Source: a virus (Duplodnaviria; Caudoviricetes). From it: 64,000 bases of DNA. The translations under genes were made by a program, and so were the position numbers. The stretch lies in IMG/VR virus record IMGVR_UViG_3300025809_001850. One strand, 5' to 3'. Position 1 is the first letter of the stretch; each line of letters starts with the position of its first letter. Shown here piece by piece: positions 307-54,415 of this stretch. Under the pieces are notes generated by a model, which had not been told where the DNA came from, did not search any database, and was given only the letters and a program-made list of their open reading frames with translations.

Positions 307-365
307 ACTTGTATTGATGATAAGGAAATACTTCCTTTAAAAACAAAAAAAAGAGAGAAAATAAA

Positions 366-6741: not shown

Positions 6742-7092
6742 GTGGCAACGATGGATAAACCCAGTTTAAACATCAACTTTTATTCAGGTGAACAATGGAG
6801 TGACATCACACTTGTCAAAAAATTTCCACCAAGCAATTCTGTTTGGAATATAGGACTTCACTCTGATGTTGGATACGAACGATATTTCGTATTACCTGAT
6901 GATGCTTTGCATGAAGGACAAGACCCGTGGGAACGATGGATGCTTCCGTGGAGAAAAAACAAAACAGATACAACTACATACGCATGGACTGACACAGAAG
7001 CAGTTTTTGATTTACCTGAGAATCTTGAATATCAATTTCGGTGGACAACTGTAGCAGGTAAAAGAGTGAAGTTGTGGCGTAAAAAACCTTGA
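6742..7092 (+). CDS. DPW-family paralog 11
   Basis: KFPPSNSVW / QDPWERWMLPW / FRWTTVAGKRVKLW. Confidence 0.8.
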   Translation: MATMDKPSLNINFYSGEQWSDITLVKKFPPSNSVWNIGLHSDVGYERYFVLPDDALHEGQDPWERWMLPWRKNKTDTTTYAWTDTEAVFDLPENLEYQFRWTTVAGKRVKLWRKKP

Positions 7093-7117
7093 CTTTTTAT
7101 AAGATTTCAAGTAGTAT
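7089..7117 (+). promoter_or_regulatory. early promoter (repeat family)
   Basis: TTGACT-17bp-TAGTAT-ACTTGTAT. Confidence 0.75.
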
Positions 7118-29333: not shown

Positions 29334-29362
29334 TTGACTTTTTATAATAATTTTGGTAGTAT
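29334..29362 (+). promoter_or_regulatory. early promoter (repeat family)
   Basis: TTGACT-17bp-TAGTAT-ACTTGTATTGAGAGTGAG. Confidence 0.85.
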
Positions 29363-38550: not shown

Positions 38551-40680
38551 ATGAAAAACGTAAGTTTTGTGCTAGTGGGGCTCTTTTTGAGTATTTCTGT
38601 CGGGTTAACCGCACAGGAAAAAATTAATGCCGAAGAACTAAAAGAGATTTCTTTAGAACGAAAAGTTGTTACTATTATTAGTAGCAATGGAAAAGAACAA
38701 ACTGGTAAAGTTCTTGAGTACGATGGAGAAAGTGTGCTATTTCAACGACAACAAGATTTACAACTATTTCGTTTGAAACTTGAAGCACTTGCATTGCAAT
38801 CTCAACGTATGATCAAAGATGATTATATGACTGCTGATTATAATGTACCAAAACTTGAAAGACCATTAAAAGAAGCAACCATTAAAAAGTTGGCAAGATA
38901 TGCTGATAATCTTGTGCTTGAAAAACTTCGTAGTGAACGGCAAAGACCAACCAGTGATACAGATGATTATACTTTTATGCGTAGAGCATATCTCAAGATA
39001 ATTGGTCGTATTCCTGGTAAAGCAGAAATTGATGAATTCAAAACAGAAATGCGTGGAAATAAACTTAAATTAATCAACAAGTTGTTAGACACTGAGGGTT
39101 ATGTTAGTCATCAGTTAAATTATTTTGCTGATATTCTTCGCATTCAAGACAAACTTAATAATACCAACATTAATAGTGGATTTCGTTATCGTGAATTTGT
39201 TCGTACTGAAATTCGTAATAATACTCCGTTTGATGAATTCGTGCAAAAACTAATTGCGGTGGAAGGTGCTTATTATGAACCTGGTAACGAAGCAATAGGA
39301 TTTTATTTGCGTGATCGTGGTATGCCATTAGATAATCTTGCAAACACCGTACAAGTGTTTTTAGGAACTCGTTTAGAATGTGCGATGTGTCATGATCATC
39401 CATTTGATAAATGGACACAAAAGCAGTTTTATGAAATGTCTGCATTCACAGACGGAGTTGGTCGTGTTCGTGGACCAAAAGAGTTTCAAACAATTGTTAA
39501 TGAATTCAATAAACTTGTTCGTGCTGATAAATCACCCGAAAATAACACACTTCAACAATATCGTAATTATATTCGTGATATTATGGGATACGGATTAGCA
39601 GATGAATTAGGCAAAGGAACAATCAAACTCACAGATGCATTTATGGAAGATGATGCAAAACCAGGTGACACACTTCATGCAAAAGCAATTTTTGCACCAC
39701 CATTGAAAATTGAACAAGGAGCAAAACTTCCACAAAGTCGTAAGCAGTTTTCTGAATGGATTACATCAGAAGCAAATCCAAGATTCACCACCGTTATTGT
39801 AAATCGTTTATGGAAACGAGCATTTGGAATTGGGTTGATTGAACCTGTGGACGATATGAATGATATGACCGAATCTAGTAATCCTAAGTTGCTTGCGTAT
39901 CTTGAAAAAATTATGGCATCAGTTGATTATGATGTTAAAGAATTTATGCGAGTGCTTTATAGCATGGATTTATTTACACGTGATAGTGTTAAAGATGATT
40001 ATGAAAGTATGGAAACATTTTACTTTGCAGGACCTCCACTTCAACGAATGACAGGAGAACAAATTTGGGATTCATTGGTAACATTAGTTTACAACAACAT
40101 TGATTCACCTGAACGAGTTCCTTCAAATTACGATGAAAAGTATCAAGCAGTTTATGAACGATACAAAGATAAAACTGCTCAAGAAATTTTTGACGAATTA
40201 AAAGTGTATATCGCCGAGACCGAGAAACCAGCCCGAAATCTTGCAGATGTTGTTGCTCAGTTGAATAAAGCAGAAGGAACAACATACGAACTAAAAAAGA
40301 TACCTGCACGTGATTTGATACGAAGCAGTTACATAGGATATCCCGCAAGAGGTGGACACCTCATTCGTCAGTTTGGTGGAAGTGATAAACAACTCATTGA
40401 AAACTCAAACTTTGAAGCAACTACACCTCAAGTTCTTAATATGCTCAATGGATTCGTTGAGCAAAAAATCGTAAACAATAAAAATGCCGACTTTATGAAA
40501 CAAATGGCACAAGAAAAACGTGAAACCGGAAAAATTGAAGATGTTTTTATGAGCATTCTTAATCGTGAACCAAACGCAAAAGAAATGAAACTTTTGAAAA
40601 AATACATTGATCAAAAAGACGGAGCAAAACATATTGCATGGATTCTTATGAACTCCCATGAATTTATTTTTATTCGTTAA
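38551..40680 (+). CDS. SHD1-DUF1549-DUF1553 protein (PVC-type)
   Basis: Signal peptide; SHD1-like TIISSNGKEQTGKV; DDYTFMRRAYLKIIGRIP; FLGTRLECAMCHDHPFDKWTQ (CxxCH); NPRFTTVIVNRLWKRAFGIGL; AWILMNSHEFIF. Confidence 0.9.
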   Translation: MKNVSFVLVGLFLSISVGLTAQEKINAEELKEISLERKVVTIISSNGKEQTGKVLEYDGESVLFQRQQDLQLFRLKLEALALQSQRMIKDDYMTADYNVPKLERPLKEATIKKLARYADNLVLEKLRSERQRPTSDTDDYTFMRRAYLKIIGRIPGKAEIDEFKTEMRGNKLKLINKLLDTEGYVSHQLNYFADILRIQDKLNNTNINSGFRYREFVRTEIRNNTPFDEFVQKLIAVEGAYYEPGNEAIGFYLRDRGMPLDNLANTVQVFLGTRLECAMCHDHPFDKWTQKQFYEMSAFTDGVGRVRGPKEFQTIVNEFNKLVRADKSPENNTLQQYRNYIRDIMGYGLADELGKGTIKLTDAFMEDDAKPGDTLHAKAIFAPPLKIEQGAKLPQSRKQFSEWITSEANPRFTTVIVNRLWKRAFGIGLIEPVDDMNDMTESSNPKLLAYLEKIMASVDYDVKEFMRVLYSMDLFTRDSVKDDYESMETFYFAGPPLQRMTGEQIWDSLVTLVYNNIDSPERVPSNYDEKYQAVYERYKDKTAQEIFDELKVYIAETEKPARNLADVVAQLNKAEGTTYELKKIPARDLIRSSYIGYPARGGHLIRQFGGSDKQLIENSNFEATTPQVLNMLNGFVEQKIVNNKNADFMKQMAQEKRETGKIEDVFMSILNREPNAKEMKLLKKYIDQKDGAKHIAWILMNSHEFIFIR

Positions 40681-40707
40681 ATTTAAAACAGAACAGGAAA
40701 CTATAAA

Positions 40708-41991
40708 ATGGAACATTTATTAACAGACGAATTATCAAGAAGAAAATTTATTAAAGGAATGGCCAAGACTTGTCTTGGAGTAAGTGCAATTATGGGAGCA
40801 AGTGATTTGAACGCATATGAAATACCTGGCAAACCTGCATCTGCACGACACGTCATATTTTTGTATATGTCAGGTGGAATGACTCACATTGATACATTTG
40901 ATCCGAAACCAGAAAACGCAGAAGTAATGGGTGAAACCAATGCAATTGCTACAAGTGCAGATGGAATTCAAATTGGTCATTGGTTACCAGAAACTGCAAA
41001 ACAAATGCACAACGCATCTTTGATTCGTAGTTTAACAAGCAATCAAGGAGCACACCAACAAGCAAATTATTTGCTTCATACTTCATATCAACGAAGAGGA
41101 ACAATCAAACATCCTACGTTGGGAAGTTGGGTAAGTCGGTTGTCAGGTAAATTGAATAAAACTTTGCCTGCACAAGTTCGCATCAACGGAGGAAGTGATG
41201 TTCTTGGTGCAGGATTTCTTGAAAGCAAACACGGACCTCTTCCGTTGGGAAATCCTTCAAGTGGAATTCAGAACTCAAAGGCTGCGAAGTATCTTGATGA
41301 AACTATGTATGACGGCCGTTTAAAAACTGCACAAGAATTCAACAAAATGTTTCTTGGTGAATATTCACAAAAGCAAGTTCGTGCTTATACAGATTTGTAT
41401 AACGATGCAGTAAAATTAATGAGCAGTAAAGATTTGGAAGCATTTGATTTAACAAAAGAAACTCAAGAAACACGTGATATGTACGGAGATGATAATTTTG
41501 GCCAAGGATGTTTGCTTGCACGAAGATTGGTAGATACCGGTGTTCGTTTTGTTGAAGTTCAACTTGGTGGTTGGGATATGCACAACGATGTATTCGGAAA
41601 CATGGAAACACGTGGTGCAACACTTGACCAAGGATTATCAGCATTATTAAAAGACCTTGAACGAACCGGTAAATTAAGCAACACAATGGTTGTGGTTGCA
41701 AGTGAGTTCGGAAGAAGTCCTGAAGTTAAAGCAGGTCGTATTGGTCGTGATCATCATCCTACTGCTTTTAGTGCGTTTCTTGCCGGTGGAGGAATCAAAG
41801 GTGGAACTGTTTATGGAGTAAGTGACAAACGAGCACATTATGTTGAAGAAGAAGGAGCATCAGTTGAAGACCTCAACGCAACAATTGCTCATGCTCTTGG
41901 ACTTAAACTTGAAGAAATACATTACTCTCCGAGTGGAAGACCTTTCAAGGTCGCACATGATGGTAAGATTCTAAACAAGATTCTTGCGTAA
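40708..41991 (+). CDS. DUF1501 protein (Tat-exported, sulfatase-like fold family)
   Basis: LSRRKFIKG twin-Arg; VIFLYMSGGMTHIDTFDPKP; GCLLARRLVDTGVRFVEV; GWDMH; SEFGRSP; RDHHP; AGGGIKGG. Confidence 0.95.
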   Translation: MEHLLTDELSRRKFIKGMAKTCLGVSAIMGASDLNAYEIPGKPASARHVIFLYMSGGMTHIDTFDPKPENAEVMGETNAIATSADGIQIGHWLPETAKQMHNASLIRSLTSNQGAHQQANYLLHTSYQRRGTIKHPTLGSWVSRLSGKLNKTLPAQVRINGGSDVLGAGFLESKHGPLPLGNPSSGIQNSKAAKYLDETMYDGRLKTAQEFNKMFLGEYSQKQVRAYTDLYNDAVKLMSSKDLEAFDLTKETQETRDMYGDDNFGQGCLLARRLVDTGVRFVEVQLGGWDMHNDVFGNMETRGATLDQGLSALLKDLERTGKLSNTMVVVASEFGRSPEVKAGRIGRDHHPTAFSAFLAGGGIKGGTVYGVSDKRAHYVEEEGASVEDLNATIAHALGLKLEEIHYSPSGRPFKVAHDGKILNKILA

Positions 41992-42284
41992 TGCGTTTAT
42001 TTAGCATCATTTGTTTGTTGTTGATGTTTCCGTTGCTATTGCTCGGAAACACCATCTCTGTACACGTAAAGGGTCTTGTATGCCCTTCGTGTGCAATAGG
42101 CATAACAAAGCATCTATTAAAGACCAACAAAATTAAAAAGGTTACTTTGAATGTTCAAACATCATATACTCATATAATACTATTAAAAAACAAAACATTA
42201 TCTGATGTTGAAATAAAAACTGCCATTGAAAATGCAGGTTACGAACTCGGTAAAAAAGGAATTCAGCGAAAATCTAATTCATGA
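41991..42284 (+). CDS. exported heavy-metal-associated (HMA) domain protein
   Basis: Signal peptide; VKGLVCPSCA metal-binding motif; IENAGY. Confidence 0.85.
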   Translation: MRLFSIICLLLMFPLLLLGNTISVHVKGLVCPSCAIGITKHLLKTNKIKKVTLNVQTSYTHIILLKNKTLSDVEIKTAIENAGYELGKKGIQRKSNS

Positions 42285-43822
42285 ATAATTTAGTGTTTGA
42301 GTTGTACAATTCACTTCGTACAAATTCTTCAAATGTATGTGTTACTGATTATAGTCTTGATAAACCAATTCATATAACCAAAAAGCAAATTTTGATAATG
42401 GCAACTGCGTTGTCAAAAGATATTGCTAAATCTACAAATTCCGATAGAGTTGGTGTTGTAATTCCAAGTTGTGGTGTAGGTATCATTGCTAATGTTGCGG
42501 TATTGCTTGCAGGTAAAATACCTGTGAATTTAAACTTTTCAGTTACAAATGATGTTGCAAGACATTGTTTAGCAAAATCGGGAATCAAGTTGATATTAAC
42601 AGTTTCTGCAATGCGTTCCAAATTTAAAGATTATCCGTTTACTGATAATACAATTGATTGTGATACACAATTAAAAGCATACAAATTTAACAAATGTAAA
42701 TTAATTTCAAATTACATTCTGCATTCACTTCCCACGTTCATTTCACGAAAAATACTGAGCATTTCACCAACCACACAATCAAAAGAATTAGCAGTTTTAT
42801 TTACAAGTGGAAGCAGTGGAAGTCCAAAAGGAGTATCATTATCTCATGCGAATATTCTTAGTAACATTGAGGGTATATGCCAAATGCAAAAGTTTCCACG
42901 TGATAGTAAACTGCTTGCCAATTTACCTTTATTTCATAGTTTTGGATTCACTGTTACAATGTGGTTACCGTTGATTAAGGGCATTCCGATTGTTACAATA
43001 CCAAGTCCCTTGGAAATAAATAAAACCATCACAGCGATTGAAAATGAGCAAGTAAGCATACTTCTAGGAACTCCCACCTTTTTGCGTGGATATCTTAAAA
43101 AAGGATCAAGCAATAAATTCAAAAGTTTGCAATATGTTGTTGCTGGGGCAGAAAAAAGCAATATAGATTTTATTAAACAATGGGAAACTTTAGCAGAATG
43201 CAAATATCTTGAAGGATATGGTCTTACAGAAACATCTCCTGTGATTTCATTGAATACCACCACCCACGGAATCAAACATGGATCAGTTGGAAAGTTGTTA
43301 CCGAATGTAATAGTTAAAACTATACATCCCGAAACAAAACAAGATTTAAGAAGACATGACAGTGGAATATTATGCTTTCAAGGCAACAACATATTCACAG
43401 GATATATCATGGATCGTTCAAAAACCAATTCATCATTTGAAAATGGTTGGTTTGTTACAGGTGATATAGGTAAACTTGATGAAGAAGGATTTCTTTTTAT
43501 TGAAGGAAGATTATCAAGATTTTCCAAAATTGGTGGGGAAATGATTCCACATGAAACAATTGAAGAATGTGCAGTCAAAATACTTGAATGGGAATCAAAC
43601 GAAGCAACCAACTTGGTGGTGGTCGGAAAGCCTCACGCAACAAAGGGTGAAGAATTGATTTTAATTACCACACAATCAATTGATTTTGATAATCTCAGAA
43701 GTAAACTATCCAAGCAACTTGGTAATTTATTCGTTCCCAAAAAACACCAAATCGTAAATGAAATACCTGTGCTTGCCACAGGAAAATTGGATTTACACGC
43801 AATAAAATCACTTGTAAACTAA
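42281..43822 (+). CDS. aas: acyl-ACP synthetase (Aas AMP-binding domain)
   Basis: VLFTSGSSGSPKGV, LPLFHSFG, EGYGLTETSP, FVTGDIG, GRLSRFSKIGGEMI, TGKLD; no acyltransferase domain. Confidence 0.85.
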   Translation: MNNLVFELYNSLRTNSSNVCVTDYSLDKPIHITKKQILIMATALSKDIAKSTNSDRVGVVIPSCGVGIIANVAVLLAGKIPVNLNFSVTNDVARHCLAKSGIKLILTVSAMRSKFKDYPFTDNTIDCDTQLKAYKFNKCKLISNYILHSLPTFISRKILSISPTTQSKELAVLFTSGSSGSPKGVSLSHANILSNIEGICQMQKFPRDSKLLANLPLFHSFGFTVTMWLPLIKGIPIVTIPSPLEINKTITAIENEQVSILLGTPTFLRGYLKKGSSNKFKSLQYVVAGAEKSNIDFIKQWETLAECKYLEGYGLTETSPVISLNTTTHGIKHGSVGKLLPNVIVKTIHPETKQDLRRHDSGILCFQGNNIFTGYIMDRSKTNSSFENGWFVTGDIGKLDEEGFLFIEGRLSRFSKIGGEMIPHETIEECAVKILEWESNEATNLVVVGKPHATKGEELILITTQSIDFDNLRSKLSKQLGNLFVPKKHQIVNEIPVLATGKLDLHAIKSLVN

Positions 43823-43831
43823 AAATAATGC

Positions 43832-43860
43832 TTGACTTTTTATAATAATTTTGGTAAGAT
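43832..43860 (+). promoter_or_regulatory. early promoter (repeat family)
   Basis: TTGACT-17bp-TAAGAT-ACTTGTATTGAGAGTGAG. Confidence 0.85.
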
Positions 43861-46751: not shown

Positions 46752-47435
46752 ATGAGAGAAACAATTATACCAAAAACTGCAATAACAGAATATAAAAAAG
46801 GTGTGATTATGCACTTTGTTAAAAGCAAATATGATAATTGTACATGGAATAAAAATCTCAGTACTTGGAAAATGCTTCAAAACCGATACGACAACGGAAC
46901 ACGTGATTCTCAGCAAAGCAAATTGTATGATGGTGAGTATAATTTACTTCCAAGTCGTGATGAAGATTATCTTGAGTTTGATGCAGTAATTTTAAAAATT
47001 GCAGAAGTTGTAAATGATACATGGTTTCGCAAAAAGTTTGGTCGTTTGTTTTCAGATACTGAACTAAAAGTAGAAAATACGAGTTCTCGTCAAAATATGG
47101 CATATGCGTTGGGAACAGACTTTTTGTCGTTACCACCTCAATTTTGTAATGTTCCTATTATTTTGCACGAATTAACTCATATCATTGTTGATAGATTATC
47201 TCATGTGGTTTACTTTAAAAAGAATTATACAACTCATGGCAGAATGTTTGCTTTTATTTATTTGGAATTAGTTAAAAAATATATGGGTACACGTTCACAT
47301 ACAATACTTAAAACGGGATTCAAAAACTATAACGTTAAGTATCACAACAGAATTGCTCAAACTAGTATTCGTAGAAAACTGCAACGAGAGCAACTTGTTC
47401 GTAATTTAAGCAAATGTGAAAAAGTTTCTAATTGA
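46752..47435 (+). CDS. SprT-like / zincin metallopeptidase-motif protein
   Basis: IILHELTHII..THGRMF. Confidence 0.65.
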   Translation: MRETIIPKTAITEYKKGVIMHFVKSKYDNCTWNKNLSTWKMLQNRYDNGTRDSQQSKLYDGEYNLLPSRDEDYLEFDAVILKIAEVVNDTWFRKKFGRLFSDTELKVENTSSRQNMAYALGTDFLSLPPQFCNVPIILHELTHIIVDRLSHVVYFKKNYTTHGRMFAFIYLELVKKYMGTRSHTILKTGFKNYNVKYHNRIAQTSIRRKLQREQLVRNLSKCEKVSN

Positions 47436-47778
47436 CACACATTCAGTTGTGTTTGGTTCAAATGCTCAAGAAAACAGTGACTTGGTATCTGAATATAAAG
47501 AATCACATCCAACTGCAACTTGGTTTCATTTAACAAATAGAAGTTCAAGTCATGCTTTTTATTTAGGTGATGATATTCTTGATACATCTGAAATTAACAT
47601 CATTGGCAATATATTATTGGCATTAAGCAACGAAGATGGTAAAAACCATAAAATTACAATGTGTCAATTAAACAATGTCAAAATAACCAAGACACCTGGA
47701 TTGGTTAACATCACCAATGATAAACAAAAACGGATTAGGAAAATAAACAATTTTGATTTAACAGATTATAAAAACTAA
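47416..47778 (+). CDS. NFACT RNA-binding (DUF814-like) domain protein
   Basis: FGSNAQENSDLV..WFHLTNRSSSHAF..NNVKITKTPGLV. Confidence 0.65.
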   Translation: MKKFLIDTHSVVFGSNAQENSDLVSEYKESHPTATWFHLTNRSSSHAFYLGDDILDTSEINIIGNILLALSNEDGKNHKITMCQLNNVKITKTPGLVNITNDKQKRIRKINNFDLTDYKN

Positions 47779-47928: not shown

Positions 47929-48255
47929 TAGTTGACACACTCTTTTATTTTCCATATATTTATTACTTGTGAAAATAAAAAGAAATAAACAAACATCAGC
48001 AACATTAGATTGCACACTATTTTGGGAAAAAAGTGATTTGGTGTTTGTGGCGGACAACAATAACGCAATACACGATAATGATCATTATACGTGTTTTTCA
48101 CATATAGAAAAGAAAATAGTTTAATCTAACAATTTTTATAAAAACCTCTTTAATTGTAATAAAGTTTAATATTTATTATAATTATAAAAAGTCCTTTAAT
48201 TCAGAAGGCACGTTCTTGAAATAAAGAACATAGATTAAAATAAGGAAATAGCAAA

Positions 48256-48489
48256 ATGAAAGCAATATTCGAAAAAGTAAATGGATTCGTTAAGGGCTTG
48301 ACAGGTGTATTCTTGGCTGTAGTAGGTCTTGGAGTAGCAGGTCAAATCGTCCTCGGTGATAAAGTTGGATTCGACGTAATTGGTAACCTTCAGGGTATCG
48401 TAGACGGATTCGTTGGCGAAGGTGCAAGCCTTGCTGGTTTAATTACTCTTCTTGTTGTTCTTGCGTTGATCGCAGGTGACAAAGAGTAA
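48256..48489 (+). CDS. 77-aa hydrophobic membrane protein (holin/toxin-like)
   Basis: Two TM segments plus amphipathic N-terminus; TAAGGA RBS at 48241; structured UTRs. Confidence 0.7.
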   Translation: MKAIFEKVNGFVKGLTGVFLAVVGLGVAGQIVLGDKVGFDVIGNLQGIVDGFVGEGASLAGLITLLVVLALIAGDKE

Positions 48490-48492
48490 AAC

Positions 48493-48570
48493 TCTAGGTA
48501 ACACCTAGAATATGTCTGAGTAATCAGGCTTTAGTTTTGTACCCCTTTCCTTATGGTTTGGGGTACATTT
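48493..48570 (+). terminator. three consecutive 3' hairpins; the last (TGTACCCC/GGGGTACA) is terminator-like and carries an anti-RBS loop
   Basis: TCTAGGT-AAC-ACCTAGA; GTCTGA-GTAA-TCAGGC; loop TTTCCTTAT is the reverse complement of ATAAGGAAA at 48240-48248. Confidence 0.7.
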
Positions 48571-48582
48571 CGTTTATAAACA

Positions 48583-48611
48583 TTGACATTGTTTTTATGA
48601 GTTTCTATAAT
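48583..48611 (+). promoter_or_regulatory. consensus sigma70 promoter
   Basis: TTGACA-17bp-TATAAT. Confidence 0.75.
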
Positions 48612-48617
48612 AATAAC

Positions 48618-48782
48618 ATGAATTTATACAAAGAAGTAGTAACTGCGATAAAAATTGTTCAAAATGACCGAGAAGACTTTTTAGCACGATCACTTGCACA
48701 CGAAGATTTAATCAAGATAAAGAAACTTTTGGATGAGCAACTTAAGGATTCTGTGCTTGCAATGGAAAAAAATGAAACCTAA
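48618..48782 (+). CDS. hypothetical protein
   Basis: Start moved to ATG 48618 downstream of promoter. Confidence 0.5.
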   Translation: MNLYKEVVTAIKIVQNDREDFLARSLAHEDLIKIKKLLDEQLKDSVLAMEKNET

Positions 48783-49005
48783 AAGATTCTTTTTTCATTA
48801 CAATAAACCTGAGAGTCGTAGACAAGGTCGCAATGTGCTAACGGTGCATTGGAAAAATGCTTGCATTCCTGTGAATCATTTGAAGATTAATGTTCCAATT
48901 GAATCTCATACTCAGAAATCACAACCACATTGCGTTATGCGTGGATTCGCAAATTCTGTGGAAATACTTGAAGATAATAATCAAAAAACTGCTATTATAA
49001 TATAA
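48772..49005 (+). CDS. conserved phage hypothetical protein
   Basis: RFFFHYNKP..TVHWKNAC..QPHCVMRG. Confidence 0.6.
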   Translation: MKPKRFFFHYNKPESRRQGRNVLTVHWKNACIPVNHLKINVPIESHTQKSQPHCVMRGFANSVEILEDNNQKTAIII

Positions 49006-54090: not shown

Positions 54091-54390
54091 ATGACAGGAT
54101 TTGATTACAATGTAGACTTGCACCAAGTAAGCACCGACAATCCCAATCATCTTATTGTTGATTCGTCTAAAATTGGATTACCACACGGATTTTTTCCAAA
54201 CTGGATCAGCACCAATGATATTGGAAATGGTTCTCCATTTTACTCAGACCGAATTCTTCGTGAGATTTCAAATGCGGATGTTGCGGATGTGGATCAACTT
54301 GAATACGGAGATGTTGAAGGATACATTTACAGACAAAACGGTGGTCAAACCCGTTTGCTTGTTTTAACCGATTACGAAGATAAAACTTGA
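54091..54390 (+). CDS. hypothetical protein
   Basis: 99-aa ORF. Confidence 0.55.
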   Translation: MTGFDYNVDLHQVSTDNPNHLIVDSSKIGLPHGFFPNWISTNDIGNGSPFYSDRILREISNADVADVDQLEYGDVEGYIYRQNGGQTRLLVLTDYEDKT

Positions 54391-54415
54391 CTTTTTATAA
54401 TAATTGTGGTAGTAT
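54387..54415 (+). promoter_or_regulatory. early promoter (repeat family)
   Basis: TTGACT-17bp-TAGTAT..TATTGAGAGTGAG. Confidence 0.8.

Follow-up and report, generated by a model that had tools for sequence, protein, structure and literature searches.

Complementarity between a terminator loop and the initiation region of a small membrane protein gene, conserved in one lineage of uncultured marine giant phages

Can the loop of a terminator hairpin reach back to the initiation region of its own mRNA, and what would such a contact do? The question is raised by a locus in 64,000 nucleotides (nt) of Caudoviricetes DNA (IMG/VR record IMGVR_UViG_3300025809_001850; the whole stretch is called the window in the following). 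Here, a gene for a predicted membrane protein of 77 amino acids (aa) is preceded by a purine block that resembles a Shine-Dalgarno (SD) motif and is followed by an intrinsic-terminator-like hairpin with an oversized loop. The loop begins with TTTCCTTAT, which is the exact complement of the purine block ATAAGGAAA. A preliminary description of the locus had placed this complementarity correctly, to the nucleotide, and had read it as a fold-back that silences the full-length mRNA of a type I toxin or holin, perhaps a lysis timer. The complementarity is real, the loop is exposed, and its sequence is under purifying selection in the window's lineage, for which the fold-back idea is reasonable. The contact would, however, comprise only 9-10 base pairs (bp), unlike the extended fold-back of the hok and aapA1 mRNAs, and the toxin, holin or lysis-timer frame is not reasonable.

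In dinucleotide shuffles, a complementary run of at least 9 nt between the initiation region and the 3' untranslated region (UTR) was found in 2.6% of the cases, and in 1.3% when the loop alone was considered. Runs of 5-6 nt were typical of the null, owing to the A-rich leader and the T-rich loop that are compared. None of 239 non-cognate initiation regions from these phages reached 9 nt, and the gene's own leader ranked third of 93 by duplex energy. In most window-like relatives the match lengthens to 10 nt (CATAAGGAAA / TTTCCTTATG); the 9-mer duplex has an energy of -7.9 kcal/mol, and that of the 10-mer one of -10.5 kcal/mol. In the fold ensemble, the SD region is unpaired and costs 0.4 kcal/mol to open. 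The locus thus offers what characterizes the icaR type of pairing, i.e. an accessible 3' UTR motif that is complementary to its own SD region, here a 14-nt loop and an open SD.

The weight of the match lies in its conservation in relatives, and not in the statistics of the single locus. The comparison set contained 68 metagenome loci and added contigs, the flanks of which were read, and four situations were distinguished. Lineage A, which includes the window, comprises 38 loci with 28 distinct full sequences and protein identities of 78-100%. Lineage B is its sister, with protein identities of 84-87%; lineage C (called 'ADKSE') has protein identities of 86-90% and includes a 529-kb contig; lineage D contains distant relatives with about 50-60% protein identity, in which the gene lies 4-25 nt after another gene and lacks a leader of its own. 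In every member of lineage A, the ATG is preceded by cATAAGGAAA and the loop reads TTTCCTTATGGTyT. The SD-like 9-mer is invariant in the 28 relatives (nucleotide diversity, pi, of 0). At four-fold degenerate sites of lineage A, pi was 0.318 and 80% of the sites were variable, compared with pi values of 0 for the terminator stems, 0.024 for the 9-mer in the loop, and 0.13 for the rest of the loop. Two loops, identical over the 10-mer and different only at other positions, account for 35 of the 38 loci, and the 10-mer is kept even in L048, the protein of which has 78% identity, though the 5' UTR hairpins have been replaced there. These values indicate that the loop 9-mer is under purifying selection in the window's lineage.

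Lineage B provides the contrast. It has the same stem (GTACCCC/GGGGTAC) and a leader that ends with AGAAGGAACTAAA, and its five 18-nt loops are all different; further loci of this lineage only repeated known loop types. The diversity of the loop (pi 0.328) exceeds that of the four-fold sites (pi 0.138). Because the loop drifts on an unchanged stem, terminator loops are not constrained as such. The loop is frozen only where it is complementary to the SD region, and this difference between lineages A and B is the strongest evidence that the sequence of the loop is functional in the window's lineage. Three of the five loop types of lineage B match their own leader at other registers, with runs of 9, 8, and 7 nt (against non-cognate leaders, P 0.008, 0 of 239, and P 0.03, respectively). 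The proposed helix between SD and loop contains six invariant pairs, two with one-sided changes that keep a wobble pair, and one that is broken, so that two of the three natural changes within the 9-mer (UA to UG and GC to GU) retain pairing.

The match is embedded in a plus-strand unit composed of a promoter, two 5' hairpins, the SD-like block, the gene, and three 3' hairpins, after which the next promoter follows (Table 1). The presence of its own promoter and terminator and of a new promoter downstream argues for a monocistronic unit; in many relatives, TTGACA or TTGATA likewise follows the terminator.

Table 1. Features of the locus of the 77-aa membrane protein (window positions)
Feature	Coordinates	Strand	Sequence or structure	Basis or remark
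Predicted sigma-70-like promoter	48154..48182	+	TTGTAA-17 nt-TATAAT	score 10/12
5' hairpin 1	48193..48208	+	CCTTT / AGAAGG core	minimum free energy (MFE) fold; almost at predicted mRNA 5' end
5' UTR hairpin 2	48212..48229	+	GTTCTT / AAGAAC	MFE and centroid folds
SD-like purine block	48240..48248	+	ATAAGGAAA; AAGGA core, 9-nt spacer to ATG	5' partner of the complementarity
Gene for 77-aa protein	48256..48489	+	two hydrophobic helices	open reading frame (ORF), family comparison
3' UTR hairpin A	48493..48509	+	TCTAGGT aac ACCTAGA	MFE and centroid folds
3' UTR hairpin B	48514..48529	+	GUAA (GNRA) loop	MFE and centroid folds
Intrinsic-terminator-like hairpin	48538..48575	+	8-bp stem, 14-nt loop (48546-48559), then TTTCGTTT	
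Complementary loop segment	48546..48554	+	TTTCCTTAT, exact complement of 48240-48248	first nine bases of the 14-nt loop
Promoter of next unit	48583..48611	+	consensus TTGACA-17-TATAAT	precedes 54-aa ORF starting at 48618; marks cassette end

Transcription is expected to start near 48189-48190, as judged from the position of the predicted promoter, the -10 block of which (TTATTATAATTATAA) is near-invariant among the 28 relatives (pi 0.06). This promoter is unlike the stereotyped early promoter of the phage. The latter, a sequence of about 29 nt (TTGACTTTTTATAATAATTTTGGTAGTAT), was found at 278-306, 2889-2917, 7089-7117, 19900-19928, 22984-23012, 29334-29362, 43832-43860, 54387-54415, and other positions, and the more general pattern TTGAC-N17-19-TANNAT has 27 matches in the window where 4 are expected; 25 of the matches lie on the plus strand. 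The sequence seems to represent the early-promoter class of the phage, and is not used by the gene for the 77-aa protein.

The hairpins that had been reported in the preliminary description, namely GTTCTT/AAGAAC in the 5' UTR and three stems in the 3' UTR, one of them with a GNRA loop, were all recovered; the MFE and centroid folds contain each of the three 3' stems, the terminator included. In the alignment of relatives, hairpin 1 has compensatory changes in three of five pairs and 98.6% of its cells are paired; from its position, it may act as a 5' stabilizer. Hairpin 2 shows both-sided changes at all six pairs across relatives, e.g. GTTTTC/GAAAAC, CTCCC/GGGGG, and ATCCC/GGGAT, and its sequence diversity is high in the window-like lineage (pi 0.38). 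In hairpin B, one pair has changed on both sides from UA to CG in 10 sequences. These double-sided changes in the two 5' hairpins and in hairpin B show that the structures are real. Most relatives have GTAA, GAAA or GCAA as the loop of hairpin B, and three have a longer loop; hairpin A occurs in the majority of the window-like relatives, and those of the L006 type have lost part of it.

The terminator stem is formed by TGTACCCC (48538-48545) and GGGGTACA (48560-48567), contains five GC pairs among its 8 bp, and is followed by TTTCGTTT in the window and by TTTCTTTT or TTTTTTTT in relatives. The GC-rich stem, the directly adjoining U-tract, and the location at the end of the unit agree with a Rho-independent terminator, of which the 14-nt loop is atypically large; terminators do not usually have loops of 14-18 nt, and the lineages whose terminators are ordinary, with short loops, show no match. 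All 28 relatives have the stem unchanged, and it is common to the sister lineage. The hairpin GTACCCC...GGGGTAC occurs in a single copy in the window, and a repeated recombination cassette (PeSL-like) was therefore rejected. A scan of IMG/VR for the palindromic stem pattern yielded unrelated hairpins only.

The SD-like block, separated by 7 nt from the ATG at 48256, belongs to a region whose AGGAA (about -13 to -9) has persisted in lineages A-C, and in part of lineage D, despite other flanks. In the whole window, SD-like motifs were found upstream of 9% of the 65 plus-strand ORFs of at least 90 aa, compared with 8% at random positions, and start regions are A-rich rather than SD-like. The host probably leans little on SD pairing. 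Because SD-like motifs are thus at background level across the window, the purine block is exceptional.

The protein itself is small and has two hydrophobic helices by prediction, as had been stated before. The two hydrophobic peaks are connected by an acidic loop, and the N and C ends are basic on average across the family. From hydropathy and charge together, the topology is predicted to be N-in/C-in; the connecting loop, acidic and glycine-zipper-like, would be periplasmic and holds the invariant family core NVIGNLQGIVxGFVGEGASLAG. An AF2 model (pLDDT 74.5) has three helices at residues 2-37, 41-53, and 59-74; besides the two hydrophobic helices, an amphipathic segment is conserved. The diversity of the gene by codon position was 0.10, 0.04, and 0.29 for positions 1, 2, and 3, which characterizes it as a coding sequence under purifying selection. 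Among 93 plus-strand ORFs, it ranks first for GC content and first for C-ending two-fold pyrimidine codons (75%; median 28%). An excess of these codons is the usual mark of translational selection, and the values suggest that this membrane protein is abundant. In codons 1-15 (48256-48300), the silent sites are near-frozen, with pi 0.059 compared with 0.343 later in the gene. This constancy spans lineages A-C, which have unrelated UTRs (L001, L006, L039-L046), and indicates that the start of the gene is under constraint at the nucleotide level.

In a collection clustered at 90% identity, 426 relatives were found at E values up to 0.01, from Tara, JGI, and ENA marine samples; at 50% identity the family forms 79 clusters. 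The matches in the ESM Atlas are unnamed clusters and mostly viral. Pfam yielded only a sub-threshold match to DcuC for the 77-aa protein, and no match was obtained with PHROGs and NCBIfam for it or its distant relatives, or with a PDB profile search and Foldseek searches of PDB and BFVD. The INPHARED collection contained no match at the DNA or protein level, and IMG/VR no relatives. A metagenomic protein of 2458 aa (P0128) matches positions 37-67 of the family profile in 11 separate stretches; it could consist of repeats of the conserved loop motif, or the matches could be an artefact of low complexity.

The window has a GC content of 34% and nearly all of its genes are on one strand. A search for tRNAs in the window found none, and Rfam gave no hit in the window at the gathering score and none in 48100-48650 at E values up to 1. 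The same gene with the same neighbours was found on marine metagenome contigs of 510-529 kb, and the locus belongs to an uncultured marine giant phage. In 35 related loci of lineages A-C, an HExxH protein of about 225 aa is encoded upstream (in the window 227 aa, 46752-47435, with a weak match to TIGR04338). In many loci, a gene for a 120-aa protein with a sub-threshold match to the NFACT-R RNA-binding domain (47416-47778) lies between the HExxH gene and the small gene. Its presence is independent of the loop type, and it was therefore rejected as a loop-binding partner. Collagen-like or DUF285 fibre-like proteins are encoded downstream. Another ORF of 77 aa downstream (MKPKRFFFHYNKP..., 48772-49005) is 77-97% conserved in the window-like and sister lineages and has no family match. 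In addition, a DUF1501 protein (374 bits) is encoded in 38551-43822, beside an AMP-binding enzyme, and PSCyt2/PSD1 proteins are encoded in distant relatives (L011:11379-12234, L012:7713-9767). These domains are typical of Planctomycetota and Verrucomicrobiota and give a hint at the host group.

The setting of lineage D differs. There, the upstream neighbour that precedes the small gene by 4-25 nt encodes a protein of 214-223 aa with a signal peptide and a C-terminal F-x-F (observed at L007:5325-5996, L010:5325-5996, L011:5340-5990, L012:5339-5983, and in the 5' flanks of L060-L081). This protein matches Gcw_chp at 24.8 bits (cut-off 24) and has sub-threshold matches to a TorF-type putative porin (TIGR02001) and to an outer-membrane beta-barrel domain. 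The two genes look like a conserved phage gene pair for an outer-membrane and an inner-membrane protein. The surroundings encode nucleotide, sulfate, and sugar enzymes. A tblastn search of the window revealed no homologue of the porin-like protein. The contigs of two distant homologues (P0126, P0143) were too short for gene context.

The explanation that we favour, and to which we would give an even chance, is that the locus is a cassette for strong expression of a small, conserved membrane protein of the phage, in which a selected contact between terminator loop and SD region tunes translation or stability. The self-contained single-gene unit would make much of a small inner-membrane protein from an mRNA that combines a host-type promoter, two covarying 5' hairpins (the first at the 5' end, as in known stabilizers), a rare SD-like site, and optimal codons. 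In the finished transcript, the oversized terminator loop would most likely form a kissing contact of 9-10 bp with the SD-like region, which lies 300 nt upstream. This could damp the loading of ribosomes onto the full-length mRNA, as in icaR, or it could shield the leader from RNases when it is free of ribosomes, as in hbs. Because every other feature maximizes output, we lean towards tuning or stabilization. The protein may act on the host envelope, since its gene is coupled to that of a porin-like outer-membrane protein in distant phages. 

A broader reading, which we consider unlikely, is that oversized terminator loops that kiss their own leader are a recurrent and evolvable 'closed loop' design of marine giant phages, by which the lifetime or the translation of certain early or abundant transcripts would be set. 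It is suggested by the frozen SD match, the matches of the sister lineage at shifting registers, and twin terminators at 26970-27069. These near-identical hairpins with ACTCTCTC loops (26979-27061, 25714-25760) follow an AAA-ATPase-like gene, the leader of which contains TGAGAGAA. The comparison of the twin terminators with the leader gave a weak result, with a run of 8 (P 0.2) and a duplex energy of P 0.03, or 0.076 against non-cognate leaders. If the broader reading is true, the small protein and its porin-like partner of distant phages would form an unrecognized envelope module of large marine phages.

Several results weigh against a functional contact. The match at the single locus is modest (P about 0.01-0.03) and, among about 90 genes, it alone is not significant. 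The loop can form a 2-bp apical helix of its own, the opening of which costs 3.8 kcal/mol; the net energy of pairing is about -4 to -6 kcal/mol, before the strain in the 14-nt loop, which is not counted in this value. Being this weak, the modelled contact would modulate and would not act as a lock; a nested alternative that opens the terminator lies 7.3 kcal/mol above the MFE. Compensatory double changes of SD and loop were not found among the relatives, and pairing is thus compatible with the data and not proven by them. The variant in L034 breaks one pair and L023 has three changes in its loop. The preliminary description had named loss of complementarity in homologues as an argument against its proposal. 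Complementarity is kept in the window's lineage, but it is missing from the ordinary short-loop terminators of the ADKSE lineage, from the plain terminators of all distant relatives, and from two of the five sister loop types, including the commonest one (seven loci: L039, L203-L208). Other large-loop terminators in 16 loci showed no excess match to the initiation region of the adjacent gene. Furthermore, the whole terminator, an element of 40 nt, is frozen and not the 9-mer alone, and another constraint on it, such as a protein site, is possible. The frozen element, the missing matches, and the absence of double changes would fit an incidental match between a T/C-rich loop and an A/G-rich initiation region, with the terminator and its loop conserved for another reason, either as a structured loop (a 3x3 U-rich internal loop, a CC/GG mini-helix, and a UUAU cap) that serves termination or 3'-end stability, or as the site of a phage or host protein. 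We regard this as possible but rather doubtful. Null runs of 5-6 nt are typical and the MFE fold indeed has the 2-bp helix inside the loop; the loops of the sister lineage can also form apical helices of 2-3 bp, with other sequences (CTG/CAG, TTG/CAA). Yet the non-cognate initiation regions all fall short of 9 nt, the sister loop drifts faster than silent sites, so that structure alone demands no fixed sequence, and a double change in L023 breaks the apical helix while SD pairing is kept as wobble. Moreover, the commonest polymorphism lies outside the 10-mer, and the neighbouring NFACT-R-like gene shows no co-variation with the loop.

Two further readings keep a functional loop and assign it another task. 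The stable 3' end, consisting of hairpin B and the terminator, could act in trans on purine-rich phage or host leaders, either as the tail of an abundant mRNA or as a processed small RNA. The loop is exposed and selected, ATAAGGAAA recurs at 320-328 in the leader of another early transcript (promoter 278-306, ATG 367), and pairing of the icaR type works in cis or in trans (PMC3868564). However, by our own estimate from base composition, two plus-strand copies of the 9-mer in 64 kb are about the number expected by chance, and the copy at 320-328 is already part of a local hairpin (window 319-338), in which it pairs with TTCCTTT, three bases further downstream. The genome has few SD-like motifs, which leaves few targets, and the best match is the gene's own leader; action in trans is thus very unlikely. 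Just as little speaks for the original proposal of a membrane-damaging toxin or holin, whose 3' loop would silence the full-length mRNA until 3' processing and so act as a timer of lysis or killing, and we consider it highly improbable. Its attraction lies in the small size of the protein, the two transmembrane (TM) helices in an N-in/C-in topology like that of class II holins, the SD/3' complementarity that is conserved in one lineage, and the hairpins at both ends. The gene is, however, the most codon-optimized ORF of the window, consistent with high expression, and a protein of 77 aa with two helices and the strongest codon bias is at odds with the usual type I toxin of less than 60 aa, with one helix and a low level. 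The core is almost invariant over a very large viral family (the 426 and 79 clusters given above); holins are usually far less conserved. The tail GDKE has a net charge of -1 (the family mean is +1.3, on a tail that is very short), and the gene has one Met start rather than a dual one. No endolysin or spanin gene was found near the small gene in five genomic contexts (the window and four others), where the neighbours are the HExxH and fibre-like proteins, sugar and sulfate enzymes, or the outer-membrane protein. An antisense RNA found no support either, as 47954-48994 contains no sigma-70-like minus-strand promoter, the promoter type that the search covered, and no Rfam family was matched. The pairing of 9-10 bp is short, it has been lost in close and distant relatives, in the latter of which the gene is co-transcribed behind another gene, and the GC-rich terminator of 8 bp would be expected to block 3' trimming.

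How does the locus compare with known systems? For the protein, Imm and other small inner-membrane proteins that T4-type phages make early, with about 80 aa, two TM helices, and a host-type promoter, offer a lead only and make an envelope-directed role plausible; no similarity of sequence or fold was found in Pfam, PHROGs, NCBIfam, PDB, and BFVD. The type I toxin mRNAs hok and aapA1 reportedly combine an antisense RNA antitoxin, extended multi-helix fold-backs, and 3' trimming with low-level toxic products that have one TM helix. The locus resembles them in having complementary 5' and 3' ends on the mRNA of a small hydrophobic protein, and in the idea that the full-length RNA would be less translatable. 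It differs in that no antisense promoter was found, the contact involves a single loop and 9-10 bp, the 2-TM protein is codon-optimized and conserved in many phages, and relatives have lost the pairing.

The closest demonstrated system is the icaR mRNA of Staphylococcus aureus, in which a UCCCCUG motif in the 3' UTR pairs with the mRNA's own SD; the pairing prevents initiation and gives rise to a site for RNase III, and the evidence for it came from a gel shift, from compensatory mutants, and from cleavage by RNase III (PMC3868564). Both mRNAs have a short pyrimidine motif in the 3' UTR that is complementary to their own SD, UCCCCUG in icaR and UUUCCUUAU(G) in the present case, and hindrance of the 30S subunit would be expected here as well. 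In icaR, however, the 3' UTR has about 390 nt and the motif is far from the terminator, whereas it is the terminator loop in the phage. In addition, icaR encodes a low-level repressor, and its phage counterpart appears to be built for high output, with a pairing that is predicted from the sequence. The next closest is the small, very highly expressed hbs mRNA of Bacillus subtilis with its strong SD, in which a 14-bp contact of the 5' UTR with the 3' UTR modulates cleavage by RNase Y (PMC5737220). By analogy, the structured 5' UTR, the strong SD, and an end-to-end contact that may link stability to translation initiation would be shared features; the contact of hbs has 14 bp and lies over the RNase Y site in the leader, whereas the one proposed here has 9-10 bp and lies over the SD. 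The present case is thus viral, involves the terminator loop itself, is confined to one lineage, and is unproven. End-to-end pairing of bacterial mRNAs has been demonstrated in few cases only (icaR, hbs). Three things would be new about a case from a phage: the anti-SD is the terminator loop, purifying selection on it is measurable, and a sister lineage with the same stem and a drifting loop serves as a natural control. It would give a compact and easily mutated model of communication between the 3' end and the ribosome-binding site, and it draws attention to a widespread, uncharacterized family of small membrane proteins of large marine phages, which in many genomes is paired with a phage-encoded porin-like protein.

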